Shown here: piece by piece, positions 3,001 to 42,425 of the stretch
Position numbering within the stretch: the first letter of the stretch is position 1
How the letters are laid out: each line of letters starts with the position of its first letter
Assembly (NCBI GenBank): GCA_964433975.1
Contig: CAYSSS010000002.1
Span: 34,441-98,440 of the forward strand
From: an uncultured Planctomycetia bacterium
GTDB taxonomy: Bacteria; Omnitrophota; Gorgyraeia; 2-01-FULL-45-10
Direction: 5' to 3'
DNA length: 64,000 nt
Program-made: the position numbers and the translations under genes
Notes under the pieces: generated by a model
What the model was told of the DNA's origin: nothing
What the model saw: only the letters and a program-made list of their open reading frames with translations
The model's database searches: none

Positions 3001-6000
3001 TGAAGAGGCCGGCACCGATAAGAAATTGGGAGCCATTGATAACGAGATAAATGATCTTATAGAGGAAGGCGCAAGTATAAGCAACCAATTGGATAATCTT
3101 GACAAGGCAAAGGCTAACGCTGAAAAGGTGATAAAAGAAATTGAAGACGCCGCAAGGGCAGCGCTTGATAAAGAAATAGAACAGCTAAGAGCGGAAAAGG
3201 AGCAATTTGATTCTGTAAAGGCAAGAGAGGATGCCGAGATTAAATTTGCCGAGGCACAGAATGAAAGGCCGGCTCTGGAACGACGCATGGGTGAAATAAC
3301 AAAGAGGGTGTTTGCGCTTCAGGCCAAAGTGAGTGAAGTAAGCGCCGAAAGAGATAAAGTCAGCAAGGAATTAGACGGTGTAGAGAAAGGGCTAAGGGCG
3401 ATCTCAGATCAACAGAATAAACTCGCAGCTCAGGCTAAAGAGATGCAGGGTATGGAGGAATATTATTCAGGCAAAGCGCTTGAGGCGGAGGGCAAATACA
3501 ATGAAGCCATTGAAAGATATAATGATTGCCTGAAGAAACTCAGCGAGGACAGGAAGAGAGACCGTATGGCGGCGATGCTGGGTATAGTGTCCTGCCATGA
3601 AAAGGCAAAAGATTTTTCTAAGGCGCATCTCACGCGCGGCCGTGCGTTAGCTCTAGGAGTGGTCATAGAGTTCGTAAGCATACCGGATCTTGCTAATATA
3701 GACAAGACGATAGCTGAGGCAGGGTCGGCATATGATAAGACCGTAGCGATGAGAAGGAAGATAGGACTTTTGAAGAGCATGATAGAGGATCCTGTAAATG
3801 CAGCAAGAAAAGAATTGCTGCAATCGGCTTTATATGGTACGTATGCAACTCTCATAGAAGTGATCAAGGGTAAAGGTAATGAAGCGGCAGAAGACAGGAC
3901 GATAGCCGAAATGAAAAATAGGCAGAGCGAGAAGAAACGCGAGCTTGCTAAAGAGAGCGCCAAGCAAAAAGATTATAGGGATTGGTGGATGAGTGTTGCA
4001 GATGACGATAAGCTTAGGGCCGATGCGGAGTTCGCAGAAAGCGAATGGCGCAAGGGCATCAAAAAACTTGAGGAAGAGATAACAGGTCTTGAGGCCGAAC
4101 TGAAGAAGCTCGAAACTGAAGCGGCGAAGAGGATGAATAGAAACACAAAAGAGATACGCGAAGCAGAGCTTGAACAGGAAAGTCTTTTGAATTCAATTGT
4201 TTTAAAAGAATTACGTGCCGCTGTCATTGCCGATTCACAGAATATAGAAGCTCGCCTTGAATTAGCGGATACCTATAGCAAGGCGAGGAACGTCAAAGAA
4301 GCGGCGAGGCAGTATCTCGCGGTTCTTGCGCGCGGTGAGAAGGCAGGCGAAGAGAACTTGAAGAAGGCGTATGACGGACTTGTGAACTTGCTTGAAAATA
4401 ATGTTCTAGAGCAGGCAATGGCGGAAGAACTTGTGAAAGCACTCTTCAAAGATGATTCAATTGTAATCCGTGAAAATGCTCAGGGCAATCTTGTAATAAA
4501 AGCGCTCAAGAAGATGGCTATAAAAGGAGTCGATATTGACGGTTTAATAAGCGCGGAGTCTGACAAGAGGAAGAATGCCCTGCCGGCGGATGCCGACGAG
4601 TCCGATCTCGAAACGATGAGAAAACAATCAATCCTTGACGAGATGACGGCCTCGCTTACCGGTAAAGATGAGTCATTCGAAGCAAAATTCGCCGCGGCCA
4701 TGGCCGGCAAAGATGATATATCAAAGATGAACGCATTGGTAGAGCTCATAAATAAATACGGTTTTGATACGGCGGAAGGAATAATTGCCCTGAACGGCCT
4801 CTTGGGTGTCGTCGAATCGGTCGCTATGACCGCGGCGCCGACCCGCGGACCTCCGGATATAATAAAAGAGATGATACGCCTACTTATTCCAACCACTACA
4901 GATCATGCCATGCGAGAGGCGCAGGACGCTATTCGGAATTTGAAGCATAGAGGCGCGGTAGTAGATCTGCTCAATAACATACTTATCAGAGAATCAAAAT
5001 TCATCGGAGAAAAGGACAACCTCACAAGGATATTTGCCATCATAGATGCAAACGATAGGCTTACGCTAGAAGAGGCCGTCTCGCTGAAGATCGATCTACT
5101 CAAGAAAGAATATGTGCTGCGCCCATCAGTTGAAATCTATATACAGATAGCAGATCTGTATAATGACATTGGCCAGAGCGACAAGGCAATCAAATATCTC
5201 GAAAAAGCCCTAGCGTATGACAAGAATTCCAAAGAGGCTTGTCTGGAACTTGCGAAGATCTACCTTGCAAAAGGCGATATTCAGAAGGCGCAGGACATGG
5301 CCATGAAGGCCCTGGAATTAGATGCCAAGTTCGTCGACGCCCATCTCATTATAGGCAGGATCCGGATGAATGAAGCCAGATACAGAGATGCGCTTGGCTC
5401 ATATAAGACAGCGCTAGAGGCGGACCCGAAGAATAAAGAGGCGCAGGACGCCATTGACAATATCTACATATTGTCAGGTGAGGGGAAGCCGGATGTTGAT
5501 TTCTACCTCACTCTTGGAGATCGCTATATAGAGGAAGGCCAGTTTGAGGCGGCAAGGGAATGCTTCTTAAAGGTACTGGAGAATAAGCCGCAAATAGGGG
5601 ATAAAGCGAGAAAAGAGAGAAAGTCTATATTAAGGGCCTATAAAGAGAAAGAGGCGCGCGCATATTACGGCCTCGCGAGAACATATGAAGCTATAGGTGT
5701 TTTTGACCTGGCAGTCATTAACTACGACATGGCGATTAAGTCGGGTCTTGAAACTGCAGACGTGTACAGGAGATTGGCGGATAGCCTGCAGAAACAGGGT
5801 AATCCGGGCTGGAGAATATCGCGCAGAATAAAGTCATTATACGTCAAGGCGCTTAAGTTAGAGAAAGATGACGCCGGAACCATAGAGAGCCGCGCGAAAG
5901 CTCTTGAATCATCCGGTAAGAAAGAAAGCGCCGTAAAAGAATATATGAAAGCCGCGGACATTTACAAGAAAGCCGGAAAACACGATGAAGCCATGAGGGT

Positions 6001-9000
6001 TCATGAAATAGTCCTTGCCATAGATCCGAACAATAAGGAAGCTATTATAGGCAGGATAGATGCATGTATTTCTAAAGATGACCTTGAGACGGCAGAGGGA
6101 TTAGTAAAGGATAAGGAAAACCTATTAAAAGCATTCCAGGAAGAGCTCGCTAAACAATCCGGAAATGCAGCGCCGTTATTAACAGAGATTAGGACCATGC
6201 TTGCCACATTCATTAAGTCACCGATGAAGACAGGCACCAACGATCGTCTGAAAGATCTGAAGAGCAAAGTTGAAGAGCTTGTTGGTAAAGGAATACTTAC
6301 CGCAGATATGGTCGGCAGAATTCAAGAATTACAGGAAATGGCGGAAGAAATTACGAAGTCCGGTGTCAATTTAACCAGCCCGTACTCTTTGGACCTCATA
6401 AGAGAGATGAAGAAACTCGCAAGGTCCATACGCCAAGAGATAGCCGATGCTGCCGGCGTTGATATAACGACATCTCTTGAAGCGGCAAAAGAAGCCTTTA
6501 GGGATAAAGGCATGTTAAGTATAGATGAAGTCTTCGGGCTTCACATGCGTCTGGCTCAAGCCTATATAGCACAAGGGGATATCACGAATGCCCAACGGCA
6601 TATTAAAGCAGCGGAAGCTATAAACTTCGACGAGAAACTTGAACAAGACAGGGCACAGGATATAAAGGCATTGAGTGACAAGATCAAAGGTATCGTTGAC
6701 AAGCGTGATAACAAGCGCGATGCTGAAAAATATGCGAGGAAAGCCGATAAGCTGATCAAAGACGCTGGCAAGTCGATAGCGGATGAAACAAGGCTGGCTG
6801 ATGTAATTACAGATCTCGTCGAAGTGGCACGCCTGTATGAAGATGCTCTAGCAATGGACGGCAGGATTAATTATGCGGCCATGAAGGCGATGGAAAAGAT
6901 AGCCGCATTATTGGAAGAAGCCTTGATGAAGATAGCTGTGATCGAAGCGGAGATGAAGGTTGTTAATCTAACAAGATTAGAGGTTGCAGAATCCGCAAAG
7001 ACGCTTAAAGGCGTGATCACTAAGATAGTCGACAGGGCACTATCCATATTTGCCGAGGCTAATAAGATAGCCGATGCCGAAAAGAACCGTTATCTGAAGA
7101 AGTACGCAGCCGTACTATACTCAATAGCAAAAGATATGATAGACAATCTCGAGAGTCTAAATAAAAACCTAAATGTCACTATCGGAGAAGAGCTGAATGG
7201 CAAGATGAGCGAGTTAAGAGCGTATGTGGATGAGGCGGGGCTCAGTAAAGAGTCACCTAAATCAATGATCGACGGTATAAATGAAAAAGCGCTCGCGGCA
7301 GTCAAGAAACCCGCCCCCAAGGTAAAAGACTCAGCTAAAATAAAGAATGTCGAAAAAGAGGCCGCAAATGCAGGCGTAGGAATTGAGCAGGTATTTGAAT
7401 CGATGACATTAAAAGATAGAAAAGGCGCGGCGCATCCTGTCACGGCAAAAGAAGCGAAACGCATGAAGGATCTCGCGTATTCGTTGCCCGAGGAGATTGA
7501 AGGAGAGGTCACACCGGCGAAGCTCTACATTGCGATATCTGAAAACGTGAATGATGCGACTGCCAGGAACATGCTATTAGGCGAATTGGCGGCTAGCAGC
7601 CTCTTTACGGTCAAGGTCGAAGGAGGTATATCGCTCAAGACAGTTGAAAGCACATCATCCAAATACGGCGTCTCCACGGAATATATCTTTATTAATCTCG
7701 TTTTCAGAGATGCCGATGGCACTGCGAAACAGGTGTCTGCGGAGGATGCTAACTTGCTGGCGAAGGTATTTGCTAAGATACAATCGGTTAATCCGGAGTT
7801 GCTGAGGTTTATCAGCATCGGAAAGTTCTACGGATTTGTGACAGCAAATATAACAACTGCTCTTAAGATTGCCGACAATGATAAAGAGTTAGGTAATGCC
7901 CTGGGTATTTCGGAAGAAGTTGTGATATTAACAGCTATAGCTCATGTTGAAAAAGTGGCACAAGCCGAACAGGCCCGCGCTGAGAAACTTGCGAAAGAAG
8001 AACAGGCAAGAGTTGAAGCAGAGCGCAAAACAGCGGAAGAAGCTGTTGTAGAAGCGAAGAAGATCGCCGCAAGAGCAGCTGCCAGCGCTAAGAGAAAAAC
8101 TACTATAGCGGAGAAGAAGAGAATAAAAGACGAGGAAGAAGCGCGCAAGAAGGCCGAAGAGAGGGCGATCGCCGAAGTAGCAGCCGAGCAGGCAAGATTG
8201 GATTCATTAAGACGTGCTGCTGAAGAAGAAGCTGCCAGAATGGCCGAAGAGACAGCAATCGCCGAGCAGGCAAGATTGGATGCGTTAATACAAGCTGCTA
8301 AGGAAACACGGCAAAGAGAAGAGGCTGAACGCAAGGTGAAAGTTGCAGAGGCATTAGGCGTGGTACAAGCCAAGCTTGCTAAGCGGGAAGCTGAAGAGAA
8401 GGCGGCCGGAGAGGCCGAAAGACAGGCTGAGGCGCAAAGGGCAACTCAAGCCAGGGCCAAGGCAGAAGAAAAAGAAGAGGCAAAACCGGCAGTAGAATTG
8501 ACGCCGGAAGAAGCCAATCAGTTATTCAGGGCCCTCTCCCGGACTCCCGAAGAAGAAAAAAAGATGCTCAGGGACGTTGAGGAGCAGGCAAGGACAATAG
8601 AGATGATGTTGTTGCGGATTCCGGAACTTGTAAAAAGCAGCCAAGCCGACGCCAGAGAAAATTTTGAAAAAGCATTGGATTTATTAAAGCGATTGATAAA
8701 TAACGTAGACAAAAACTTCGTTCTTCAGGATGAAATAACATCTAAAGCTGAAATGATCGTGCATGATCTGAAAGTACTGGCTTCGATACAGCAGCAGCTC
8801 GTGCCTGCAGAATTAAAGAAGCCCAAGTTCCCGAGTTTTGAGGGTATGCCTACATCTACTCTAAGCTTTAATGGAGCGGCAGGGGTTGTATGGTTCTTCA
8901 GGCAGACGGCCTACTGGTTCAGAGTAGCTATTGGTAAGATACAGACAGCGATTGCCGAGAGGAAAGCAAGGCGGCAAGCCGTCAGAACCAAAGAAGCCGC

Positions 9001-11020
9001 GGTTTCCGTCGGAAAAGCGCAGGCGCCGGCCCGTACGGAAGAAGAGATAATTGATATAATGGTCAAGCAGGGTGAGGGGTGGACGATTGAAAGCCGCGCC
9101 GGAGAGGAAAAGTATAATATCATAAAAATGAGAGTAGTAGCCCATGAGCTGAGGGTGGCGTGGAATAATCCTCTCGGTCAATATGTGCAGGCGGCAATAG
9201 AGCTAGAGAAATCAGGAAACGCGCCTGATGCACAGCGTAAATTAAAAGAGATGCGCGGCAATGCGAAGAAGTTTTACGAAAATGAGGACTTCCTGTCCCT
9301 CGACTTCTATGCAATAGCGGATGCAATAAAAGATAGGATTGACTCGATAAAGGAAAATCCGGCCGCAATAGAACTCTTGAAGAATGAACGCAGGATGCTG
9401 AGCGATGCTGCCACAGAGCTACTAAGGGGCATTAATATGGAGGATACCAGCATTATGCCGCTGCGAGGAGTTCAGCCGCCGCTTGCGATGATGAGCGCGG
9501 CGCCGCCGGCCAGCATGGTAGGCATGACGAATATCTTCAAGCCTATAGGAAGACTGCCGACGAAGGCGCGGAACGCCATAGAGGCGGCTTACTACGGTGA
9601 AGAAAGGGTTGATAATGAGGTGGTTGTAAGATACTCCGGAATAGAATATTCAGGCGCGACCCTTAAAGAAGCACTTAAGGGCCTTCCTAAGGAAGTCGCG
9701 GATGCCGTGAGGAAAGAAGCAAAAGGCGCTTACGAAGCCTCTTACGCCATTCTTCAGGGCGGACGGGTAAGTTTAAGCCGCATAGCGGCGTTCGACGTGG
9801 CCGAGGACGGGACGGTAAGGAGCGTGAGTTGCACGGAGGATGTATCATCTGAAGACGGCGTACCGGTTGAGCGCGGCCATCTGCATTTGAGGCCGATCAA
9901 GAGCATGGAAGAGCTACGCGGCGATATGATCGCCATGATGATAAGAAAAGAATCATATGGCAAGTATGTAGATGAACATATATGGCAGATAACGTCCGAC
10001 GGCATTAAAGAAAGCATTCTGAAGCATGAGAACGGTAATTTTGTCCTGTATCAGGACGGAAGACCCTACGCGCCGGATGGTAAAACGTTTGCATTATCTG
10101 CCAACGATGTAATAGGCAAAATGTCGATCAAACAGGCGAGCGAAGGCCTAACGCGGTCAACTGCATGGCAGGTCGGCGCTGTCATCGCTATGCCGTCGGA
10201 GAAGTCGGGTCCGTTTGTAAATAAGGTCCGCGAAACGATAGGCGTGAAATCTGAATTCATATATATAATCAGGCAGATACTCGATGCCTTTGAAAGGGCG
10301 CCGATGAAAGACAGGGTCCCGAAAGATGAAATATACGGTGCCATCGGCCGAATCAGCATGGGTGACGGAAGCGCGTTCCATAATCTGGCGTTGTCATTGC
10401 GAACGGCAGGTGCCTTCAAAGGTGACTGCGCCACATTCATAGATCTGCGCAGCGTGAAGGGCTTCAATCTGAATGATATGATACAGGCGGTTAAAAATAT
10501 GGCTCGCGGCGCGGGTGCTGGGTCTCCGCTCAAAATAGGGATCGTTGTAGATACTAAAGTCGACCCAATAAAAGGTGTGGATATTATCAGTGATAATACG
10601 GGCCGAAGCGCATTTGATGTCGTCGGAGAATATGCTCGTATGAAGGGCATAGATACTCAAAACATTTCAATCGGCGTACCTGAAAACGATGAAAATATTG
10701 CCGCAGCAGAATCTTATATCAGAACCAATCTTAAGTCAGCGTCCAGCATATTGATCGCAAATGCAGACGGACTCAATAAAGCCGAAGATAAAGCCGCGAT
10801 ACCGGCACTCAATATCATAAATCTACTCGGTAAGCTTGCGACCGCGCAGGAACTTAATGTAATGACCATAGGCTGCAGTACAGAAAACGTTGGTAAGTTC
10901 GCATCACTGATGCAGCAGTTGAATGGTATACTCAGACTGATCGTCATAGCCAAAGAAGATATTGGAAGAAGGGTTAAAGAGTTCATCGGTGCCATGCAGG
11001 CCACCGCCCGTTCGTTGTAA
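2..11020 (+). CDS. Giant (>=3,672 aa) TPR/coiled-coil protein, 5'-truncated by the window edge; ends with the C-terminal domain and tail shared by the giant proteins
   Basis: The frame is uninterrupted from position 2 to TAA 11018-11020. The track starts it at GTG 8, but no in-frame stop lies upstream and no signal peptide or N-module is visible, so the true start is probably upstream of the window. TM hairpin at ~2344-2475 (IAIGVVKFGIPIVIGLVVSVCVF / GWALAFAVPGVIM). Textbook TPR units at 5126-6090. Long E/K/A-rich heptad-like stretches. C-terminal tail GILRLIVIAKEDIGRRVKEFIGAMQATARSL. Confidence 0.88.
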   Translation, partial: RKVQSAKTAELLGKLKDTEPTKDILTGIDEILGVPDISGFEITKQLQEKFGLLYDEDSIGALLNTASGVLSLNSSEFRQRLIRSVTDMLARRCIDSQIESIREDFYKKTENMMRFGNMSKKTIIKAAEAEARNAMGVIRNVAVTAQGFEKYVQEQIGIAKDTAIKIEYYENAKSEAYTKLQAARGAGDRTVELEQLERIAECYQELKTLDPSNVDYYDSQIRYFSQSISVLRKELGRSDSGVETISPIVKPSGKKKTGLLTEIREEVLGPQRAYVARTVSSQARRISAQEVAEMMARAEGNAAVMSEAVDLQDGSAAEFGLDGTMVLRCREEQIAASLLKAKKDGKLGKPIVCLPPDDDPAITSARCQKIREELSQMSQETLSGLGSSRVVLIGFSQSEPGTAAASGKLFVMHLGYSQTDPENEFNRALMGLADAEDSSGAGITRLIKESAGKEKGVVEIDGYKFGFADTDDGIRVIRGNITEDEELVLGQSNKNVAGFVKSVGLHIDINGKITLGDRQEGLLSASDFINEMKVKGFIKGVPAYRDYSKGFSGFLSRILDAIGSMRKKIVDNITGADKKHRETVKDFIYTWRGLPQAFDRKALVAERESLRSQANKLTGDAKNKKNERIAAIDDILVRAEEVRGLMRDLRGKDEAKRTAAAAKLVEMAKKLGDPQLDALLAEFGDEIIKGLKPVADGKVSMPAGTALRTEEINFVLAEAFAVKGEAGLRRGLTYYNRAASSAAMNGNKKVEGDARVERAKIYSQGNPVKRIIDMAAGYKAGKIAIGVVKFGIPIVIGLVVSVCVFHLPIGWALAFAVPGVIMKAFKLLQGSQKDAIQKAIARGDYKAVQKYQKMESVKNTFAKWTGFSFVKTLINGLISIPQTRAAEKEAIKAAMLGNEEAIVLMFDKPRDLKTRAANAMKSLTGAHAAEKNALFGAMTTGDAKALEAIANDSTRSAAVRAFAYRRLAAGFGEKRTALVKEREAAEARRRDLEARRNKLNEEAGTDKKLGAIDNEINDLIEEGASISNQLDNLDKAKANAEKVIKEIEDAARAALDKEIEQLRAEKEQFDSVKAREDAEIKFAEAQNERPALERRMGEITKRVFALQAKVSEVSAERDKVSKELDGVEKGLRAISDQQNKLAAQAKEMQGMEEYYSGKALEAEGKYNEAIERYNDCLKKLSEDRKRDRMAAMLGIVSCHEKAKDFSKAHLTRGRALALGVVIEFVSIPDLANIDKTIAEAGSAYDKTVAMRRKIGLLKSMIEDPVNAARKELLQSALYGTYATLIEVIKGKGNEAAEDRTIAEMKNRQSEKKRELAKESAKQKDYRDWWMSVADDDKLRADAEFAESEWRKGIKKLEEEITGLEAELKKLETEAAKRMNRNTKEIREAELEQESLLNSIVLKELRAAVIADSQNIEARLELADTYSKARNVKEAARQYLAVLARGEKAGEENLKKAYDGLVNLLENNVLEQAMAEELVKALFKDDSIVIRENAQGNLVIKALKKMAIKGVDIDGLISAESDKRKNALPADADESDLETMRKQSILDEMTASLTGKDESFEAKFAAAMAGKDDISKMNALVELINKYGFDTAEGIIALNGLLGVVESVAMTAAPTRGPPDIIKEMIRLLIPTTTDHAMREAQDAIRNLKHRGAVVDLLNNILIRESKFIGEKDNLTRIFAIIDANDRLTLEEAVSLKIDLLKKEYVLRPSVEIYIQIADLYNDIGQSDKAIKYLEKALAYDKNSKEACLELAKIYLAKGDIQKAQDMAMKALELDAKFVDAHLIIGRIRMNEARYRDALGSYKTALEADPKNKEAQDAIDNIYILSGEGKPDVDFYLTLGDRYIEEGQFEAARECFLKVLENKPQIGDKARKERKSILRAYKEKEARAYYGLARTYEAIGVFDLAVINYDMAIKSGLETADVYRRLADSLQKQGNPGWRISRRIKSLYVKALKLEKDDAGTIESRAKALESSGKKESAVKEYMKAADIYKKAGKHDEAMRVHEIVLAIDPNNKEAIIGRIDACISKDDLETAEGLVKDKENLLKAFQEELAKQSGNAAPLLTEIRTMLATFIKSPMKTGTNDRLKDLKSKVEELVGKGILTADMVGRIQELQEMAEEITKSGVNLTSPYSLDLIREMKKLARSIRQEIADAAGVDITTSLEAAKEAFRDKGMLSIDEVFGLHMRLAQAYIAQGDITNAQRHIKAAEAINFDEKLEQDRAQDIKALSDKIKGIVDKRDNKRDAEKYARKADKLIKDAGKSIADETRLADVITDLVEVARLYEDALAMDGRINYAAMKAMEKIAALLEEALMKIAVIEAEMKVVNLTRLEVAESAKTLKGVITKIVDRALSIFAEANKIADAEKNRYLKKYAAVLYSIAKDMIDNLESLNKNLNVTIGEELNGKMSELRAYVDEAGLSKESPKSMIDGINEKALAAVKKPAPKVKDSAKIKNVEKEAANAGVGIEQVFESMTLKDRKGAAHPVTAKEAKRMKDLAYSLPEEIEGEVTPAKLYIAISENVNDATARNMLLGELAASSLFTVKVEGGISLKTVESTSSKYGVSTEYIFINLVFRDADGTAKQVSAEDANLLAKVFAKIQSVNPELLRFISIGKFYGFVTANITTALKIADNDKELGNALGISEEVVILTAIAHVEKVAQAEQARAEKLAKEEQARVEAERKTAEEAVVEAKKIAARAAASAKRKTTIAEKKRIKDEEEARKKAEERAIAEVAAEQARLDSLRRAAEEEAARMAEETAIAEQARLDALIQAAKETRQREEAERKVKVAEALGVVQAKLAKREAEEKAAGEAERQAEAQRATQARAKAEEKEEAKPAVELTPEEANQLFRALSRTPEEEKKMLRDVEEQARTIEMMLLRIPELVKSSQADARENFEKALDLLKRLINNVDKNFVLQDEITSKAEMIVHDLKVLASIQQQLVPAELKKPKFPSFEGMPTSTLSFNGAAGVVWFFRQTAYWFRVAIGKIQTAIAERKARRQAVRTKEAAVSVGKAQAPARTEEEIIDIMVKQGEGWTIESRAGEEKYNIIKMRVVAHELRVAWNNPLGQYVQAAIELEKSGNAPDAQRKLKEMRGNAKKFYENEDFLSLDFYAIADAIKDRIDSIKENPAAIELLKNERRMLSDAATELLRGINMEDTSIMPLRGVQPPLAMMSAAPPASMVGMTNIFKPIGRLPTKARNAIEAAYYGEERVDNEVVVRYSGIEYSGATLKEALKGLPKEVADAVRKEAKGAYEASYAILQGGRVSLSRIAAFDVAEDGTVRSVSCTEDVSSEDGVPVERGHLHLRPIKSMEELRGDMIAMMIRKESYGKYVDEHIWQITSDGIKESILKHENGNFVLYQDGRPYAPDGKTFALSANDVIGKMSIKQASEGLTRSTAWQVGAVIAMPSEKSGPFVNKVRETIGVKSEFIYIIRQILDAFERAPMKDRVPKDEIYGAIGRISMGDGSAFHNLALSLRTAGAFKGDCATFIDLRSVKGFNLNDMIQAVKNMARGAGAGSPLKIGIVVDTKVDPIKGVDIISDNTGRSAFDVVGEYARMKGIDTQNISIGVPENDENIAAAESYIRTNLKSASSILIANADGLNKAEDKAAIPALNIINLLGKLATAQELNVMTIGCSTENVGKFASLMQQLNGILRLIVIAKEDIGRRVKEFIGAMQATARSL
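5126..6090 (+). other. TPR repeat array (domain of the 2-11020 protein)
   Basis: Successive 34-residue units fit the TPR consensus, e.g. IADLYNDIGQSDKAIKYLEKALAYDKNSKEA, LAKIYLAKGDIQKAQDMAMKALELDAKFVDA, GRIRMNEARYRDALGSYKTALEADPKNKEA and ADIYKKAGKHDEAMRVHEIVLAIDPNNKEA. Confidence 0.8.
7945..8490 (+). repeat. E/A/K/R-rich low-complexity coiled-coil tract with an internal duplicated unit
   Basis: The translation is almost entirely E, A, K, R and Q (AEQARAEKLAKEEQARVEAERKTAEEAVVEAKK...). The unit AIAE(VAA)EQARLD(S/A)L is duplicated: DNA gcgatcgccgaag...gagcaggcaagattggattc (from 8167) versus gcaatcgccgagcaggcaagattggatgc (from 8257). Confidence 0.6.
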
Positions 11021-12552: not shown

Positions 12553-12580
12553 TTGACATATACATTATAAGTGGTATACT
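12553..12580 (+). promoter_or_regulatory. Sigma70-type extended -10 promoter for the 12636-30438 operon
   Basis: TTGACA (12553-12558), 16-nt spacer ending in TGg (12572-12574), then TATACT (12575-12580). It is followed by an A/C-rich leader of about 50 nt (aaacactaaacaaaagatagataaacaaaacaaagga) up to GTG 12636. Confidence 0.6.
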
Positions 12581-12635
12581 CATCTGTAAACACTAAACAA
12601 AAGATAGATAAACAAAACAAAGGACATCCCCGATA

Positions 12636-14500
12636 GTGAATGCTTGGCGCAAACAGACAAAAGGATCAGCCACAAGAGAAGAGCTTGGGACGAAGCCGCT
12701 TATCATGGACTTGCAAAGTCCTGGAAATAAAAAGTGGCTTAGGGCCGTAGCTCTTTTTTTAGTTATAGCGTTTGTTAATCAGGATATAATCTGGGCGCAG
12801 GGCGGGGATCCCGTTTGGGCTAAGGGCGCGAACGGGTCTTTTAATTTAAAGCCGAAGGTGAACGGCCATGGCGACGTATCGATTCCCAAGGATATAGCCG
12901 TTACAAAGGACGTCTACAGCGGCGCCAACGGCAAGACGATCATAAATATCCAGGATGCCCACGCGTCGCTTACCGCGCAGGAGTCCATAGTATCCATATT
13001 AGACTCATTAGTAACCAATTATGACCTTAAATTGGTGGCTATAGAGGGCTCTTCAGGCTATATAGACACATCACTCTTAAAGACATTCCCGGACGAATCC
13101 ATCCGTAAAGCATCGGCCAAGTACCTGATGAAGAAGGGCAAGCTCTCTGCAGGCGAGTTCTTTTCCGTAACTTCGGACAAGGAGATCGCCTTATATGGCA
13201 TAGAGTCAAAGAAGCTCTATACCGAAAACGTAGAGCAGTTCAAGAAGATCTACGAGATAAACGGGGCTATATCGAAGGATATAAGAGGCCTTACAGCCGC
13301 GTTCGAGGATCTCAAGGACAAGATATATTCCACAGATCTGAAGCAATTGGAGAGGAACTCTGTCCTACATAAGGACGGCAAGATCGGCTTCTCAGACCGC
13401 TGGGAGTTCGTCTACGCACTGGCCTCAAAATACAACATAAGCTATAAGAAGTACGAAAATCTCGCAAAGCTAGTCGAATCCCTGAAATACGAAAAGAAGA
13501 TAAATTTTAACAAGGCCACAAAAGAGCGTGACGCCCTGATCGATGCCTTAAGCAAGAAGGTCGTGAAGCAGGACCTCGAGCAGATGGTCCTGAAGAGCGT
13601 ATCGTTCAAGATGAATAAGCTGTCGCAGGGCGAATATTACCTCTACCTGCAGGAGCTGGCATCGCGCTACGGCATAGATCCCGTGCCGTACGGGCACCTC
13701 ATAAACTACACCAACTACATAGCTCTGTATGAGTCCATAGACATAATGGCGATCTTTGAGGAGGTCAAGGCCTATGAGGATGAGATAGAGGCGAAATTAT
13801 TCACCAATGAATACCAGAAGAAACTGCATGATTTCTCGGGCTTTGTCGATCTGGTATCGAACCTTTATGAGCTGAAGCTATCCAACGGCGACCTCGAGGC
13901 CTTTGTGGTAGATATGAATAAATTCAACGCTGCCGATATCGCGCAGTTCATCAAGGCCGCCTCGCTGAAGTACGGGGTCACCATAAACGGCGACTACGAC
14001 CTTGGCGCTATCTTCGACAATATTCCGACCGCACTCTCTTTCTACAGGACAGCGGAAGAGAGAAATACAGCTATCCTCGCCAATACCATAAACCGCATGG
14101 ATAGAGAGGGCCAGAACGTGGCTGCGCTCGTTACGGGAGGTTTCCACACCAAAGGCCTCACGGAAATATTGAAGCAGAAAGAGACCTCATACATCGTAAT
14201 ACTGCCTAAGTTCGACGCCTCCAAAGGCGACAGGCCGTACGTGGCGATACTCACCAACAAAAAGGACCCTTACGAGGACCTGATCCGAAGCGGCAAGTGC
14301 CAGATATTGGCGGAAGAGTACCTGGGCGAAGGGATATCGGATCCCATCATGACAGAGGCGTTCATCGTAGATGTCATAATGACGAACCTGGCTGTGGCCG
14401 CCATAGAGAAGAAGAATGTCGACAGCGTGGCGCAATTATGGATCGACAGCTATGCCAGGGCCTATGATAACCTCAAAACAAAAGGCATAATCAAAGAGCC
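12636..14500 (+). other. Shared N-terminal module, copy A (extended signal peptide plus ~560-aa domain; tentatively Tiki/ChaN/TraB-like)
   Basis: IINIQDAHASLTAQESIVSILDSLVTNYDLKLVAIEGSSGYIDTSLLKTFPDE ... ALVTGGFHTKGLTEILKQKETSYIVILPKFDASKGDRPYVAILTNKKDPYEDL. It is colinear with copies at 42426-44340 (very close) and 30566-32150 (more divergent). Confidence 0.75.
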
Positions 14501-17500
14501 GCCTGCCGGCGTTCAAGAGAAGCCCTTTGTGTGGACATATGGATACAGGACAGTCGAAGTACTTAAAGACGGAACTATCGAGAACAGGCCATCTAGCGCG
14601 GGAGAGGTGGAGGAATATAAGAATGCGTACCGCAAAGAGGGCGCCGCCAAAGGCAAAACGGTTTCTTTCGAAGAGAGGCTTGCGAGGTTAGAGACCACCA
14701 CCAAGGAGATGCTCGCAGAATCGATAGCCGGATCTATCAACAAAGCAAAGGCCAAGAAAAATTTTGACGAGGAATTTGAAAGAGTCGCAAACCGAAAGGG
14801 CGCGTACAAGGCCCTTACCGACAAAGAAAAATCCGAGATCAAGAACGATGTCCGCGGCAGGATGGACAGGTACTTGGCGACGAACAGCAATGTGGCCCCA
14901 ACCGATAATCCATTAACACCAAAATACATGGCTGGCGCAGTTAGAGCTATTGTACAAAATCATCTTGGCCCAGTTACGGAGGATATGGCTAGGCTTGGAC
15001 CAGAAGCGCTCCCCGCTCCTGTTATGCCGAGGATTCCAACTGCGAGAGAGGTTAACTATGGGGTCAGCCGTATTCCTTCGGGCGAGCCTATACCTTACGA
15101 AAGAGCGATAGCGAGCATAGCAGAAGTAGTAAGAAGCTCCAGAGAGCCCGTCATAGTAGTCATAGATGGAAAGACTGATAAAAGCGATCTGAGCCAAAAA
15201 GCGGGCAAGACTTATACCGCAAAGAGCATGATGGATGACGAACTATATGGCCCCAAAGAAGAAAAGATTCACATTTTCGGGGATAGTTTTGCGAAGACGT
15301 TTAATAAGGTAGCAGCCGGCAAGAACATAGAACAGGCTATTGAGGTACCTTACCAGAAGATCATAGATGACAAGGATTCAATAAATAAACGCACTTTATA
15401 CGAAGAGTACATAGGCCGTTATTTTGCCCACCACCTCAACGAATTGTTAGTTGAAGGGAGACGCGTCATAGTCTTTGACGAAGCGTCAGCCATCTTTAAT
15501 TTCAGGATGGCAATGCAGTATCATAAAGAGCTTCCTAGCAAGATAAGAGTGGTCAATGTGTATATTGAGGCTGAGAATGGACAGCGCACTGTGCGATCCG
15601 ACCAGGGATTGTGGGGTGGCGATATTAATCCGATCAAAGAAATTTCACCTAAGCCGCCCGCCCTCGAAGAATTAGCGATAAACTTAAGCGAAGTCTTTAT
15701 TTTAAGAGCAGGAGAAGCCGCAAATACTAATATCGAAGGTATTAAATTCGAAGCCGGTATGACGGACCTGCCCGATGCTATCTTCGAAGCTGCTCAAGGA
15801 GAGGGTGCCGATGAGATTGAGATAATATTGAGCAAAGATTTAAAGACTGCAAGGATCAAGTTATTTGCTTCCGGCAAAGAAATTGCAAATCCGCTGCCAT
15901 CATTTAATTCAGACTGTTTCGGTGGATTAGTTGGCAGCTGTTATATGCATGTAAAACCGATGGACCCCGGTGGCTCTTGGGAAAAAGATTTTAGCAAGGA
16001 ATTCATTAGCAGGAAAGGAACGCCGCTTTTAGTGGCACACGAAGTAAAGGAAGGCGAGCACTATCTAAGGATTTCTATACCTAAAAAGCCGGCCGCGCCG
16101 GAAGCGCCAAAGGCGCCGGAGGGCCTCGGCGTCATACCTAGCATGAGAAATTGGTTTAGCGATGGCTTATTCAGAAAATTATTCGACAAAAAATATGACA
16201 CGATGATGACTATTTATGATGTGCTCCTAGGGCCCTTATTCGAAGAAGCGGGATTCAGGGGTATTCCTATAAGCATTGCAGTGCTGATGCAGACCGGCGG
16301 CTTTAATAACGCGTTTATCTTTGCAAGTCTTGCTGTGGCTCTTATAGTCACATTCGCAGCATTTGTGTTGCTGCACCCGAAAGAAGCGAGGGGCCCACCC
16401 GTACTCATAGGAATAATGGCCTCTCTTACTCCCTTCCTATTTTTATCGATGGGCATGCCTCTCTTGTATTCACTGCTTGCCACCTTTGGAATACACATAA
16501 TCATAAACAGTGTTGCACTTATACAAACAGACAGAGATAAATTCAAAACGCGCGCTATGATTGACGAGCTCACGAAGTTAGGAAATAGGTGGGCAGGAGT
16601 AGAAGCTCTAAATACGGAGATAGGGCATGCTTCCAGGAACGAAGGCCGGCGACTATCATTCATTATCATGGATATAGACAATTTCAAAGAGGTAAATGAT
16701 GCCTACGGCCACCAGGTCGGCGATGATGTGTTAACGCAAGTTGCCGATATTGTAAAAAAACGTATTAGGCAAGAAGATACGGTGTTCAGGTATGGCGGTG
16801 AAGAGATCGCGGTAATAGTGCCAGAGTCCGATGTCGATGGAGCAAGCGCCCTTGCATCAGATATTAGGCTTGCTATAGAGAACGGGACGAACCCGATAAA
16901 AGTCACGGTAAGCATAGGGGTTTCACAATATCGCAGAGATCCTAGTAGGGATTCTGTGAGAGCCTATGACATAGAGGATGAAAAGAGGGTCACAGAAAGA
17001 GAGATCAAGGGAGTTATTGAAAGGGCGGATAAGGCGCTTTATTTAGCGAAACACGAGGGAAAAAATACGATTCGCAATGAAAGAGACCGGCCGGGCATAC
17101 CGGCGCCGGGGAAGCTTGCTATGCCGGCAATGGGTTGTCCATCCGATGAGGCAAGTTTTGTCAGTGCAGGATATCTCCCGGTGCTAGGCGGTATAGCGGT
17201 CGCCGCGATAATCGTAGCAAGCGCCGATATCAATACGCTCAATTTTGTGCTGTCGGGCCTTTCCGGATTAGCGGCATTTTACATACTACGCGCGGTAAAA
17301 CTTAAGTTCACGGCATGGTCCGGCGCTATCCTCGCAACCTTATTGGCGGCAATGTTATCGGGAATACTTCCTTTAGGTCCGCCTTCGCGCGTCACGCCCG
17401 AGCAACTTACGCTTCCGGCAGTTACAGCCGCAGCGCCCATTCAACAGGCGATGCCGATTACAACCGCTCCTGTCGCAGCGACGCAGCCAGCGCCTGTTGC

Positions 17501-20500
17501 ACCTGTGCCTGCCGCAGTAGAAAAGGCAGAAAAAAAATTAGTAAAAGCGCCGGACATTATAAAATTGCTGAACGAAGGTTCCAATAAAGAACTGTTGAAT
17601 GCCGATGCCAGGGACGCTACGATACTTGGCTGTGAAGGAATGACCGAAGAAGATGCCGCCAAGATAGAATTTATTATGAGATCTATCACGGCAATCGAGC
17701 TCGGCCTCTATTATCCGCAGACCGGAAATCCGCTACAGACGGACCGCATATGGGTTGAAAAATTCATAAAAGATCTGACCAAAAATGAAAATGGAATAAA
17801 AGATAAAAATACCGCTTTGGTGAATTGGCTCAGGAGCATTGTAAAAATACTCGATAACACCAAGGGCTCAAGGTCGATTAAAGCGGCGGAAAGGATCGAG
17901 GCCCTTGCAAAGAAATTGGAAAAGGACCTTGGGGCAAGGCAAAAATTAGATCTGGAAGAATATTTCCTCCGGACCTCCAGGGACTTGAGAGGCCTGATAA
18001 CGCAGGATTCTTATGCGGCTTACCGCGTAGGGGCATACGCTTTCAGAAGAGGGGAGATCGATCTAGCTACCGTAAAGAAAGGTGATTATGCCGCTATAGC
18101 AAAGGCGTGGAAAGAAAAGTGGAATACATGGCTTGGCCTTGGCCTTGTCAGCAGGGCAGAAATAATAGCGATGATAGCGGATGCTAACGAAGCTGACTTT
18201 AAGATAGGCATGCATATATTTAATATCGCAAGCCCGACATACGAAGAACTGGTAAGGGCAAAGCGCAAATTACGAGAAATATATTATGAAACAAGAAAAA
18301 AAGGTATAGACAAAATGACTCCGGACGAGCTTCAGGGCCTGCTCGCCAAAATTAAAAAGAATGAAGACGGCATAAAAGCAGCTCAAGAAAAGTTTACAGT
18401 TATTTTAAAAAAGCTATCCGGTGTTTTAACGGGCGAATTCTCTAAAAAACTGCTGGCCGAAATAGATGCTGGGTTTTCGGGCGCGTGCCTGGAAGCGAAA
18501 GAATTGGGCGGCTATTCTGCAGATGGCTTCAAGGCAAAAATAGAAGCGAGGATAAAGGCCTCAACCCAGCCGAAGGCTGGAATCAGATTAAATATGTCGG
18601 GGATCATGACAGGACTTACATTCATCCTACTCGCCAAGATGGGTTTAGCGCCTATATCGATCGGGATAGCCGTGATTTTGGTGAGCTTGATCGTTCTGGC
18701 TGTAACAAAAACCGGGATTATTTCAAAAATTCCGCACTTCATCCTTCGTATCTACGCTTTCGCGGATCGCGTAAATGGGAGATATCAAAACTTAAGAACG
18801 GGAAATAAGATTAGCAAAAAGATGCGAGCACACGGCTATGGGCGACCGCCCAAAGTGGAAAAGCCTCTCAGGCCCGGCGAAGAGCCGAAAGTGGTGACGA
18901 CAGGATTTGTTGGATCGCCGCTCTTATACAAAGATCCGTATCGAGAGAGCCTGAAACTAGACCCTTATGATAAAGCCCATTATAAATGGGACCCTGAAAT
19001 CCATCGCTGGTATCGCGACGACCTGACGAATAAGAAGACAGTACTCGGAACATGGGAAGATGTTCAGAGGGCCAAAAAAGAGAACCCAACGGATATGAAA
19101 TACCACGTTGTCATAAGGATGAAGGACCGTTGCTCTGTATATGTTTTTGATGCGCACCATGACTCGCAATACTATCTACAAGAGGCATATGAGAGGAACG
19201 AGATAAAGAGAAGCGGCAACAAAATACTATGGTTGGATGATCATCCGGATATGGCGGATCGAAATGCTTTGGCCGATGCGCGTATAGCCAGAGAAACTAT
19301 CGAAAACGGATGGGCGTCGGGGGACGAAGGCGCTTTTATGTGGGGCCATGCAGGGCCTGTATGGGATAAAAGGGTTCCGGTATCAGGTGCGTGGAAAATA
19401 GATAAAAAGTTGGTCGGTTCATATAAAAGCTTTAATCTCGCCAAATATGACAGTGATCCGGCGTTGAAAAGAATGCTGGAAGAAGACAAATTAGCTTTAA
19501 TAGTAGATACGGATGTGGCTGAAGCAGGGCCTACAATCGCATTCCTGAACAAACTCCATGGCCGTACGTCCACCGTACATATTACCACATCACCTTCAGA
19601 AACCGAGGAGCTTACCAAAGCCGAACAAGATGGAGCATATGGTATGATGGATGGCTTAATCTCTCCAGAAGGCTATGGCACCGTAGAAATCAGCCGGAAG
19701 CTAGCGCAATTTTTCACCGGGTATAACGCGGAAGAGAAAAGACCTCCCAGGCCCGGCGCGGGCGTACTGCCTATAACTAGAAAAATATTTGGCGAGAAAT
19801 TCGGCAAGAGCGGATGGGTGACCTTTGGAATCGCTCCCATCCTGGAAGAACTTATTTTTAGGGTGGCGCCGCTCTTCTTGCCCATGGTGCTGGCAGTTCT
19901 ATTTGTGCCGGGCATAAATATTTTAGATCTCACTTATTTTAGCCCCACCTCACTAATGGCTTTTTCAACAAGTCTTGGGGCCTCTGGCTTCATCTTTACC
20001 CGGCTGCACGGTGATACTAAAAGAGAAGCTATGATTCCGGCCATAATAAGCGTTCTTGCAGGGGCCGCAGGCATAGGCGCGGCATTCTTCATCCTGCCGC
20101 ACTTTACCCTGCTATATGGAAACATTGGTTTGCTGTACGGCGGTTTGATCGCCTGGGGAATATTCAGCCTTAAGCATATCATAGCCAATGTGATTACGGT
20201 CATATTCAAGCTCCCCTATCTTATAGCGAACCTTTTCAGGAAACCCAACGCAGGCGGAAAGTCCGAGATATCCCCGCAACAAGAAGTCGTAGATGTCAAA
20301 ATACACAGGAATAGGGCGCGCGCCGTGGCAATAAGAGTGCTGAATGTCATGTATCCGGGCAAGGATAAAAGAGAACGGGCCGCACTGGAAAAAGAACACG
20401 CCGCCTTTGTAAGAAATTTTGACGACAGAAGAATGATCCCCGGATTCGAGAGAGAGCAAAGGGACCGCCTTCTGAAGATAATAGGCATGGCAGACTCTGT

Positions 20501-23500
20501 GCTGGCATATGTCTTCCCGATACTCGATTCTTATAATCTACTCAAAAAGCATATAGAATCAAAAGAGGCGGACAATATGCATATATACATATATAATTCT
20601 CCCGAGGAGGTAGGATATCAGCCGCCCACGAGAATAGTAATAGCGGCGAATGACAGGGACCATCTTGTGGTCGATGCCACGAATCTGGTTGTCAACAAAT
20701 TATCGAGTATAATCGGCAAGACAATATATATACCACCGAGGTTATATTCGTATTCCACATCTCATTATGATAATCGGTATCCGATCTTGTATTTTGACGT
20801 CGTATGCATAGATAATAAAACTGGCGCGCAGCTGCCGCTAACGGAAGATGACATAGCGAAAATTTACGATAAATTCAACCTGCGGCCGATATTCGAAGGT
20901 TCAGCCGGCCCGGTCAAAATATACGGCGTAAGGAAGGAAGAATTAAGAGAGGCCATCGAGCCGGCTATGGACAAGGCGATATGGAAACGCAATACGGCGG
21001 CGGAGAGGGCGCTTAAGAGCAAACCTTCCGGCGGAGCAAGGATAGCCGCAGGCGGCGCCGTAGTTGTGCCGGAAATAAATAGCGCTGATTTTAAAGAGAA
21101 GATATGCCGTTGGTGGGATACCGACAGGTTCGTGCGCCTCAAAATAGCCTCAGCCATACAGGATCTCGGAGCCGCCATCGATACCATAACGGCGACACCA
21201 GGCATAATGCACCTTTCGATGGGGGAGATCGCAAAGCGCATAAAGGAAAAGATAACCCATCCGCACAGGCAAGAGGCGATGACCAACCTCATGATAATAA
21301 TAAAGACAGATATTATACCGCAGACCATGCGCGATGGCCCTAAAGCTAGAAAGATAAGGTTATTGCTGGAAGACAGGATCATAAAGAAGATCAATAGTTA
21401 TCAGCAGGAGAGCAATGATTGTCGCAGTGTAGGAGACGAAAAAAAAGCGGAAGAGTTAAAAGCGCTCGCGGCCGAATTTAAAACGCTCGGCGATGAGTTG
21501 ATGAAAGAATTTATAAAGAGAAGTGACTGGGTTCCCGATGAGATGGTGGAGCATGAATGCAACCGACTTAAGGAAGCCGTTGAGAGTATAAAGGCCAAAG
21601 TAATTGCCGGCGCCAGCATGGTAAACGTTCAGATTGCAATGTCATATAATGGTCCGATGAATGCCCTTATCGAGAAAGGCAAGGGCATGATAAGGCAGCC
21701 ATGCCCCGATGACCCTATACAGACTCAGCATCTATCTGCGGCCAGCGCTATGCTTGGCCTGGCAAAATTCGCGGGAGATTACTCCAGGGAAGCGAAAGAT
21801 TTAGGTAACTCCACAGGCGAATCGATCTGGAGGGATTTTGAACATCAGCTCCTTATAAGCGCCGGGCTTCTTGAGATAAGGCCTGTCATAGGCGGGTTAT
21901 TAAAAGACGAGATCATACAGATGGAAGAAGATAACCTGCGGGATATCCTGGGTACGATAGGGCGCCTGCATAACCAGATGGAAGAAGACGGCATGATATC
22001 GCCGTACAGCATGCCTTTCATACAAATGTTAAGGGCGGAAGCCATTCCCGAGATAAAAAATGGGAATACCGCCACCAAAGCCGTAAGCAGTATCATGGAT
22101 GCGGCGATAAAAAAAGAAGAGAACCCAAAAGCGAAGCGCGCCATGACCAGAACATCGGATATGATACTACAGGAGCTTAACGCCATAAGGGTGCTCGACG
22201 ATTCCGACGGCTCGATAGATCTTGAAAAGCCCATAGTGATAGTCACCAAAAACCTCGATCTCTATGTGGCGCTGAAAATTTTCAGAGAGAGCAACAAGAT
22301 AGCGGCCATAATCACGGACGAGGACGTACCTACCGCGCACTGGGCGATAGTGGCAAGCAGCAGAGTGCCCGTATTTACAAGCACCCGTTCGGAGACCGGC
22401 CAGGCCGCGACGTCGCTCATAAACAACAATGACATGGTATTTGTATATGAGATGACCGGGGCGATACGCGCGGGCGCCTCCTCCGAGACGATCATGGCGC
22501 TCGATATGAAGAAGGCCGAGGGGGCTATACTGCAGTCCGCGGCGGACCCGAGAAGGCTTGAGGATGCCAAAACTACGGACGGCGTTTCCTGTAATTTTAC
22601 GATAGACATGAGGGACCCCAGGGATTTCAGAAAATCGCTGGACTACGGCTTTAAAGACGTCGGCCTGTTACGCTCGGAATTGATCTATCAGGAGAGCAAC
22701 GGCCTGCCTTCCGATGAGGAGCTGGAAAGAATATTCACACGAATAGCTGATGCCACCGAAGGAACTGTCACCATAAGGATGTTCGATATGCAGCCCGATA
22801 AGAAGCCATCATATCTTCCGCATACCGGTCTTAAGGGTACGGCATACTTATTGAGCGATGGAACGCGGGATACAATCACTATGCCGCTCTTACGCGCTAT
22901 AACGAGGGCGTATTATAGATCAAAGGCGCGCAATATACGGATCTCATTCCCGAACGTTATGGACGGTCCGGAAGCATCGCAGGCCCGTAGTATTGCCACG
23001 AGCGTAGTAGCGGATATCAAGAAAGAGCTTGGCCTGACGACGGAAGCGCCGAATATGCCCATCGGAAATATGATAGAAAAGAAAGAAGCCGTAGATAACA
23101 GAAATGATATCGCAGCCAATTCCGATTTTATCAGTATAGGTACCAACGACCTTAGTGACGACATACGCGGTATTAATGACAGGACAAGCGCAGCCGGCTC
23201 TACAGAGTTTCCTTTTGAACTGGCAAAAGATATCATGCTTGTTTACGAGTCGGTGTCGCGCGCGAAGATCCCTCTCAGCATATGCGGTGAACGAGCTCAG
23301 GATTTAGAGACTATTTTAGTCGGCCTTGCAGTTTCGCAGGGAGAATCAAACAGGATAACATTTGTTGTGAGGCCCGATCAGGTGGCGCGGTTGAAACAGA
23401 TCGTAAGAAATACCGATATTTCAAAATTCATCTTGGAGGCAAAGTCTTATATCGCTAAATTTATCGAAGAGGCGCCTCCCGAAGAATCAGACGCGTATCC

Positions 23501-30468: not shown

Positions 30469-30496
30469 TTGACATTGTCCTATTGTTTGATATACT
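30469..30496 (+). promoter_or_regulatory. Sigma70-type extended -10 promoter for the 30566 gene
   Basis: TTGACA (30469-30474), 16-nt spacer ending in TGa (30488-30490), then TATACT (30491-30496). It is followed by an A/C-rich leader (aacaaacgtaagcaaacaaaaag...) and the SD GGAGG (30555-30559). Confidence 0.6.
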
Positions 30497-30565
30497 TATT
30501 AACAAACGTAAGCAAACAAAAAGTAAGTAATTGCAACTCACAGCCAAGACTTACGGAGGTAACGA

Positions 30566-42333: not shown

Positions 42334-42362
42334 TTGACTCTGTACCATAATAATGTTATACT
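42334..42362 (+). promoter_or_regulatory. Sigma70-type extended -10 promoter for the 42426 giant gene
   Basis: TTGACT (42334-42339), 17-nt spacer ending in TGt (42354-42356), then TATACT (42357-42362). It is followed by an A/C-rich leader (aataggaacaaaaaggcag...aacacaac) and the SD GAGGG (42410-42414). Confidence 0.55.
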
Positions 42363-42425
42363 TCAGGTGTAATAGGAACAAAAAGGCAGTTCTTAACACA
42401 ACATTTTTTGAGGGTGATATAAAAA

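Follow-up and report, generated by a model that had tools for sequence, protein, structure and literature searches.

A conserved leader and a start-codon nucleotide element in a family of giant Omnitrophota proteins

The leader of genes B and E

The window analyzed here is a 64,000-nucleotide stretch of an Omnitrophota genome (contig CAYSSS010000002.1); it matches ENA metagenome contig ERZ27248937 k141_318752. It is filled by five giant genes in tandem, all on the plus strand, which we call A to E. Two of them, B and E, begin with a long leader that precedes the first hydrophobic segment of the encoded protein, and the first codons of this leader contain the nucleotide element GCTTGGC. The leader and the element are the subject of this study. 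The gene call for B in the ENA contig is 4088 amino acids (aa) long, i.e., it uses the long start.

8-11020, + strand: A, with its 5' end cut off by the window
12636-24902, + strand: B, 4088 aa, GTG start
25507-30438, + strand: C, 1643 aa
30566-41098, + strand: D, 3510 aa, complete
42426 to beyond 64000, + strand: E, more than 7191 aa, ATG start

A preliminary description of this DNA had reported that B and E carry about 35 residues ahead of the hydrophobic core and that these residues are conserved, not merely basic. Translation of positions 12636-13235 and 42426-43025 reproduced the B and E peptides quoted there exactly, except that the E stretch placed at 42480 starts at about 42498. The length was right for B, where 36 residues precede an 11-residue apolar core (A37-V47), but E has 50. 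Counted on the translations, 31 of the 45 aligned leader residues are identical (69%), and the identity in the following domain is about the same (65% over the first 300 aa). The motif shared by B and E lies far beyond chance, and 34 sequences that carry it align without gaps and have many invariant columns. The parts of the two leaders are as follows, with arrows in the text below marking cleavage sites.

12636-12638, + strand: GTG start codon of B (long start); the gene call of the source assembly also starts here
12651-12671, + strand: variable linker KQTKGSA of the B N-domain, disordered according to AlphaFold2
12672-12737, + strand: juxtamembrane motif TREELGTKPLIMDLQSPGNKKW of B, conserved at the peptide level; includes Met24 (12705-12707) and the basic n-region
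12738-12776, + strand: h-region LRAVALFLVIAFV of B with the apolar core of 11 residues (from hydropathy and AlphaFold2)
12777-12797, + strand: c-region NQDIIWA of B; predicted signal peptidase I site after Ala54, between 12797 and 12798
12798-12818, + strand: predicted mature N-terminus QGGDPVW of B, with Gln at +1 and G, P and W invariant
42426-42428, + strand: ATG start codon of E (long start)
42504-42569, + strand: peptide motif TREELGRKSLIMDWQSARNKKW of E; internal Met38 at 42537-42539
42570-42629, + strand: h-region IRAVALFLIACFI and c-region NQDLVWA of E; predicted cleavage between 42629 and 42630
42630-42650, + strand: predicted mature N-terminus QEGSPVW of E

Residues 1-23 of B span peptides such as QTKGSATR and EELGTKPLIMDLQSPGNK. 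The AlphaFold2 model of B, built on a 48-sequence alignment, has low confidence at residues 1-28 and 55-89, a helix at residues 29-54 and a confident domain from residue 90 onward. At the DNA level, a terminator-like hairpin with a run of seven T lies inside the part of B that encodes the signal peptide (12734-12763), and E carries the same T run (CTTTTTTTA, Leu-Phe-Leu).

Conservation and translation of the leader

All homologues came from metagenome-assembled genomes of Candidatus Omnitrophota. The motif noticed in B and E was retained in most of the 66 database homologues, and it was also found in the genome loci L004-L082. Thirty-four sequences could be aligned without gaps over 55 residues, and in all 34 the L, M and D of LIMD (the I at 94%), S, the Trp before the core, F, Q, G, P and W are invariant. 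The order of elements at the N-terminus of the family is M-x-A-W-(Q/R), a linker of about 5-40 residues that is conserved only within subfamilies, (S)TREELG-x-K-S-L-I-M-D-W-Q-S-x-R-N-K-K-W-I-R, the apolar core, and N/H-Q-D-h-V-W-A-Q-G-G-x-P-h-W. Distant subgroups have G-M-A-D-W-R-K-R-H-A-F-L-F-K or G-(I/V)-x-x-W-(K/R)-(K/R)-R-H-A-F-F-I-K in place of the motif. The common core is thus (D/E)-W-basic-x-basic beside the membrane, and not every subgroup has the Met.

A search with a 69-position profile restricted to the N-terminus matched 134 clusters at E<=1e-3, 54 of them at E<=1e-10, among 1.84 billion representatives. The matching proteins are up to 7,834 aa long, and almost all that are long enough run into the same domain, I-x-I-Q-D-x-H...E-G..G-Y-I-D-T-S. 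In fragmented assemblies, the profile can also be used to tell where giant genes truly begin. When starts were called from Shine-Dalgarno (SD) sequences in 79 loci, 65 had 28-74 residues ahead of the core and 14 had 22 or fewer; by inspection, L005, L024 and L049 fall into the short class only since the SD rule chose an internal Met. Within the window, C and D have short ordinary signal peptides (...FIALDISWA↓YPP in C, and MARLKKVVAIVLLPTFILSNIAFA in D, followed by E after the cleavage site). The leader is therefore a feature of a subgroup, in line with its earlier assignment to the closest giant paralogues.

Entropy over the 13 codons for STREELGxKSLIM was 1.0, 0.92 and 1.6 bits at codon positions 1, 2 and 3, respectively. 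The conserved Arg is encoded by both CGN and AGR, Leu by six codons, Ser by both TCN and AGY, and Gly by all four of its codons. Such third-position variation and the use of synonymous codon families indicate selection on the peptide. Conservation at the peptide level, as presumed at the outset, holds for STREELGxKSLIM but not for codons 3-5, where the constraint is on the nucleotides (see below).

In every locus examined, the reading frame extended upstream without a stop as far as an in-frame start, and dozens of loci have the M-x-A-W start. At this upstream start, the mean SD duplex energy was -7.7 kcal/mol, with 76% of the values at or below -6. The internal Met of LIMD, at which a start would remove the extension, gave -3.4 kcal/mol and 4%, as compared to -2.6 kcal/mol and 10% for background internal ATGs. 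As far as the sequence can tell, the extension is translated from the upstream codon (GTG at 12636 in B and ATG at 42426 in E), and the start at the second Met that the preliminary description had named as a possible objection finds little support in these energies. A promoter scan placed strong promoter-like sites 55-65 nucleotides (nt) upstream of the long starts of B and E.

12553-12580, + strand: sigma-70-like promoter of B; TTGACA, 16-nt spacer, TG-extended TATACT; 11/12 matches
12619-12624, + strand: Shine-Dalgarno-like AAAGGA of B, 11 nt before the GTG; duplex energy -5.3 kcal/mol
42334-42362, + strand: sigma-70-like promoter of E; TTGACT, 17-nt spacer, TG-extended TATACT; 10/12 matches
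42410-42417, + strand: Shine-Dalgarno sequence GAGGGTGA of E; duplex energy -6.1 kcal/mol

Read by eye, a promoter-like site with a TATACT -10 box also precedes D at 30470-30497, and B, D and E each have a near-consensus promoter-like site of their own despite their head-to-tail arrangement on the same strand. The 5' untranslated regions of E-type genes share a recurring motif, AAAAAGGCAGTTnTTAACA, about 30-45 nt upstream of the start (42380-42398 in the window; also in L004, L005, L007, L014, L015 and L017).

The NCBI gene calls P0004, P0021 and P0039 start at MDWQS. Their open upstream extensions begin with MSVWQ, MGVSQ and MLAWQ, are 19-35 residues long, and each has its own SD sequence. 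In L001, L002 and L003, where the annotation starts at 1501, the missed extensions occupy 1444-1500, 1420-1500 and 1396-1500, respectively. On this evidence, these public annotations that start at MDWQS are truncated.

The nucleotide element at the first codons

Codons 3-5 are conserved as nucleotides, not as amino acids. The 34 canonical starts read ATG/GTG NNN GCTTGGC. Where codon 3 encodes Ala, it is GCT every time (35 of 35), as opposed to 17% of the Ala codons in the same genes (binomial P ~2e-27, ignoring relatedness). Of the 15 Arg codons at position 5, 14 are CGN, as opposed to a background of 44.5% (P ~1e-4). Across ~1.27 Mb, searched on both strands, [AG]TG-NNN-GCTTGGC occurred 36 times, in each case where a family gene starts: 34 occurrences form the start itself, and two lie out of frame inside the start array of L081. 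The motif is absent from D, which has no extension.

12642-12648, + strand: GCTTGGC element of B, codons 3-5 (Ala-Trp-Arg), under nucleotide-level constraint across the family
42432-42438, + strand: GCTTGGC element of E, codons 3-5
42442-42457, + strand: small hairpin GCCGAAGAGAUUCGGC of E, directly after the element
L081, 9795-9978: array
L062, 9858-10008: array
L079, 9799-9903: array
L045, 9960-10008: array
L056, 9873-9933: array
L058, 55-110: array

In the six relatives with arrays, the CTTGGC core (CTTGGGG in L058) is repeated 3-10 times; every array has its repeats on the coding strand and sits at a family gene's 5' end. The spacings are not multiples of three (18, 19, 18, 24, 17 and 27 in L081; 14, 23, 9, 14, 15, 13 and 20 in L062). 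The same core is thus read as A-W-Q, L-A-x or L-G-K, or is left untranslated, and its flanks have diverged. RNAalifold found no consensus RNA structure or hairpin around the start in 34 ungapped sequences, and Rfam gave no match at gathering score in the whole window. Individual hairpins of other sequence than that of E follow the element in about one-quarter of the relatives (L004, L014, L010, L005/7/8, L009 and L051), and B has none. A metagenome-wide scan for triple CTTGGC arrays gave, among the matches listed, unrelated regular tandem repeats, with the family in none of 80 loci.

These patterns suggest that GCTTGGC is a strand-specific cis element of the coding strand that covers the initiation region, most likely an mRNA site for a regulator or for translational control. 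The first codons, AUG NNN GCUUGGC, would then double as a nucleic acid element. There is some likeness to the sites of CsrA/RsmA, which are also short, strand-specific, GG-containing motifs in an A-rich context that occur singly over the initiation region or as arrays in leaders; the CUUGGC arrays of 3-10 copies, 9-30 nt apart, resemble them in this respect. CsrA sites are defined by a GGA core, usually in a hairpin loop. The core here is GGC in 35 of 35 canonical copies, with no consensus hairpin, and we rejected a CsrA-type site.

A speculative reading, to which we give little credence, joins the element and the peptide into one control module for costly genes, in which a CUUGGC operator gates initiation and the N-domain of the leader acts after targeting. 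The operator may belong to an RNA-binding regulator or a small RNA, with arrays of up to 10 copies, and the N-domain could hold the signal in the translocon or, once released into the cytoplasm, could signal that export has started.

Function of the leader and comparison with known systems

B and E had been regarded as exported proteins. A Pfam scan found GGDEF (residues 1307-1477) and PEP-utilizers_C (3310-3593) domains in B, and a hydropathy scan found later hydrophobic segments in B (1228-1296, 1514-1581, 1989-2023, 2406-2630 and 3685) and in E (1776-2222 and 6619-7187). Because hydrophobic stretches recur in their interior alongside domains of cytoplasmic type, B and E count as polytopic membrane giants, of the kind with a signal peptide and transmembrane (TM) segments that is known from Omnitrophota, and not simply as exported substrates. 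The same hydropathy scan found no hydrophobic segment beyond the signal in C and D. C has NDK, GH2 TIM barrel and ILEI domains, D has PGM/PMM and PGI domains, and A has TPR repeats. In C (25507-30438) and D (30566-41098), a signal peptide is thus joined to sugar and nucleotide enzymes of cytoplasmic type (PGM/PMM, PGI and NDK), which would end up outside the cytoplasm.

The domain that follows the signal in B (12900-13535, residues ~90-300) is present at the same place in D and E. Its pattern is IINIQDAH..AQ..EG..GYIDTS..FPD, with D107, H109, Q115, E137, G138, G141 and P152 invariant, and AlphaFold2 returned a confident alpha/beta model (pLDDT ~90). Searches of Pfam and NCBIfam, a sequence-profile search of the PDB and a Foldseek search against the PDB gave no match; the best PDB profile match, troponin C at E=0.013, was meaningless, and the best Foldseek-PDB value was E=0.36. 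A ChaN/TraB-like fold, suspected from I-x-I-Q-D-x-H...E-G, was rejected as all database searches failed.

The extension had also been proposed to serve the export of oversized substrates. A role tied to giant size is not supported, since family members with short leaders are equally large: D has 3510 aa, P0124 has 4568 aa, and the short-signal proteins of L038, L080, L074 and L042 each have at least 3,596 aa. The extension is not required for size. Small open reading frames (ORFs) with the extension (618-1923 aa) were dropped from the argument; each is followed by an overlapping continuing frame, and they are probably frameshifts or assembly errors. A difference in TM count between long and short leaders was likewise set aside as unreliable, with L005, L024 and L049 misplaced in the short class. 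Elsewhere in the family, several ORFs end and an overlapping frame takes over, which then extends by hundreds to thousands of codons (L068 12400-20796, L017 15652-20898, L071 11599-12171 and L043 6353-11014). These are frameshifts, assembly errors or possibly real, and the apparent sizes are unreliable.

The end of the leader resembles a Sec signal peptide. All 34 aligned sequences have an uninterrupted apolar core of 11-12 residues, within the ~7-15 typical of Sec signals, and the eight residues before it form a basic n-region with a mean net charge of +3.2 and a minimum of +1 (65 loci). The polar c-region, N-Q-D-h-x-W-A, has the small or neutral residues at positions -3 and -1 that signal peptidase I (SPase I) accepts. 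Among group-1 sequences, position -1 is Ala in 97%, position -2 is Trp and position +1 is Gln in 94%; position -3 is V in 71% and is otherwise uncharged (I, T, A or G in the sequences listed). Ala54 shows no variation in A2 and is conserved to at least 90% in A1; the -1 Ala ranks among the best-conserved residues of the N-terminal 300 aa. The conservation of the -1 Ala points to recognition by SPase I. From the internal Met onward, the sequence alone is a canonical Sec/SPase I signal peptide of ~32 residues.

We lean towards the view that the leader represents the N-terminal part (N-domain) of a long signal peptide of Sec type with two domains, cleavable at V-W-A↓Q-G-G, and that this N-domain tunes the start of export. 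The signal would be 54 residues long in B and 68 in E. The textbook Sec/SPase I layout, the conserved -1 Ala and the AlphaFold2 confidence pattern favour a cleaved form over an anchor. The leader is confined to a single paralogous family, whose members are very large envelope proteins of Omnitrophota. Its first 36-50 residues (28-74 across the family) make up a net-positive, disordered tail that has the conserved motif at its end. This basic and aromatic juxtamembrane motif would stay on the cytoplasmic face, fix the N-in orientation, and engage the membrane interface or a targeting or translocon factor. The N-domain would thereby adjust the onset of export for the first large periplasmic domain and perhaps the rate at which the signal is cleaved. 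SPase I would cut after V-W-A and leave an N-terminal Gln.

Several points weigh against a cleaved signal that tunes export. The start site and SPase I cleavage after V-W-A are both predictions from sequence. The shared motifs could partly reflect common descent, not a targeting function, and the extension is dispensable for very large relatives such as D. No partner protein was identified, and domain scans found no SecA-like domain in the giants of the window. In addition, the helix from Trp34 to Trp53 spans 20 residues, a length compatible with an uncleaved anchor. Such an anchor is the main rival. The first hydrophobic segment would be an uncleaved N-in signal anchor, and the extension would be a permanent cytoplasmic tail of a polytopic giant, which would bind either a partner in the cytoplasm or cytoplasmic domains of the same protein, for example GGDEF. 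The many later hydrophobic segments and cytoplasm-type domains of B and E agree with it, as do the single continuous helix of 26 residues (29-54) drawn by AlphaFold2 and the flanking Trp residues at both ends, 20 residues apart; moreover, a tail conserved at the peptide level makes more sense if the protein retains it than if it is a leader to be thrown away. However, the apolar core has just 11-12 residues before the polar N-Q-D, an anchor would not need the SPase I signature of conserved -1 Ala, uncharged -3 and +1 Gln, and paralogues with short leaders keep the same c-region. We therefore consider an anchor unlikely, albeit a serious contender. A twin-arginine (Tat) signal is far less plausible and, in our judgment, highly improbable. 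Tat signals typically have a long n-region, and the W-(R/K)-R-R-H-A-F-F-I-K found before the core in distant subgroups resembles S-R-R-x-F-L-K, but B and E lack an Arg pair and read R/G-N-K-K-W-(I/L)-R. Their strongly hydrophobic core and a c-region free of basic residues also speak against Tat; neither Pfam (E<=10 on seven N-termini) nor NCBIfam (E<=1) gave a Tat-signal match, and it is implausible that Tat would export polytopic proteins of 4,000-7,000 residues.

Two further alternatives concern the start codon. If translation began at the internal Met, the product would have a normal signal peptide of 32 residues, and the upstream conservation would belong to a 5' leader RNA. The sequence from this Met on is indeed a textbook signal peptide, the Met is invariant in 34 of 34 group-1 sequences, the NCBI annotation begins there in several homologues, two loci (L005 and L049) have a good SD sequence before it, and codons 3-5 are under real nucleotide-level constraint. 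Nevertheless, we hold an internal start to be very improbable: the STREELGxKSLI codons vary at the third position as coding sequence typically does, no stop interrupts the frame up to a conserved in-frame start in any locus checked, the SD energy at the internal Met differs little from background, and more distant subgroups keep the D/E-W-basic motif but have I, V or T instead of the Met. Use of both starts, with a long and a short pre-protein made from one mRNA in a ratio set by the CUUGGC element, would account for the invariant internal Met of group 1, for the self-sufficient signal downstream of it and for the position of the cis element on the upstream start. It is improbable as well, given that the internal Met has no SD sequence and is not conserved outside groups 1 and 2.

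Overall, the observation of a conserved leader was confirmed and extended to the whole family, and its interpretation was partly supported. The leader, translated and conserved, lies outside the ESPR (extended signal peptide region) family, and the nucleotide element at the start codon is an additional finding. How proteins of thousands to more than 100,000 residues are made and inserted is an open question for Omnitrophota, and two preprints on Omnitrophota giants treat the handling of such lengths by Sec, the signal recognition particle and YidC as untested (bioRxiv 10.1101/2023.11.21.568195, 10.64898/2026.06.07.730766). The leader family offers a handle on giant-protein export in the form of a translated leader whose invariant residues can be mutated. 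Proteomics can check the predicted cleavage site, and reporter assays the short cis element at the start codon.

The proteins described here share with the known Omnitrophota giants the phylum, the tandem arrangement of giant genes, and the combination of a signal peptide with many TM helices and metabolic or GGDEF domains (bioRxiv 10.1101/2023.11.21.568195, 10.64898/2026.06.07.730766). The accessible parts of these preprints emphasize SecA_DEAD and C39 domains and make no mention of a conserved N-terminal extension, a QDxH domain family or a start-codon motif. Domain scans of the giant proteins in the window found neither SecA_DEAD nor C39. A double-glycine/C39 leader was rejected: the leader has a strongly hydrophobic core, the window has no C39 domain, and the G-G lies after the Ala-Gln site. 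A lipoprotein signal was rejected because the Cys of L-I-A-C in E is not conserved (it is Ala in B), and a prepilin-type signal because there is no G↓F-T-L-x-E motif. The +1 Gln predicted in 94% of group-1 sequences (12798-12800 and 42630-42632) bears only a resemblance to the Q-rule, in which the +1 Gln of SPase I substrates is cyclized to pyroglutamate and which has been described as specific to Bacteroidetes (PMC5837995, PMC10653852).

Two signal families of Gram-positive bacteria have a comparable design. YSIRK-G/S (PF04650) and KxYKxGKxW (TIGR03715) are long signals of very large surface proteins with a conserved n-region motif beside the core. The Omnitrophota leader, too, has a family-specific n-region motif that adjoins the core and is found on giants, but the motif and the phylum are different. 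Membership in either family was rejected; no NCBIfam or Pfam model matched, even at E<=10 on isolated N-termini, and no accessory SecA2/SecY2 context or SecA-like domain was seen in the window.

The likeness drawn in the preliminary description was to the ESPR of very large autotransporters and TpsA proteins. Long signals of these proteins have a two-domain layout (NtraC, N1-H1-N2-H2-C) and a proposed role (PMC2805444). The Omnitrophota leader does not belong to this family: Pfam gave no match to ESPR (PF13018) on the full proteins or, at E<=10, on seven isolated N-termini, domain scans found no type V secretion domain (autotransporter beta-domain, two-partner secretion or trimeric adhesin) in A-E, the phylum is Omnitrophota and not Proteobacteria, and the proteins that carry the leader here are polytopic inner-membrane proteins. 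Of N1-H1-N2-H2-C, the N2-H2-C part is clear and self-sufficient, while "H1" amounts to L-I-M-x-W (~5 residues) and the remainder is polar and disordered. What stands of the analogy is the layout, a conserved extension of ~25-50 residues, net positive in both, placed before a Sec signal that works by itself, with a charged transition between the two (PMC2805444). Both are found on very large envelope proteins, and the L-I-M-x-W patch with its basic cluster mimics H1-N2. Long autotransporter signals have been proposed to work in the way suggested here for the leader, which would then be a parallel solution and not a homologue.

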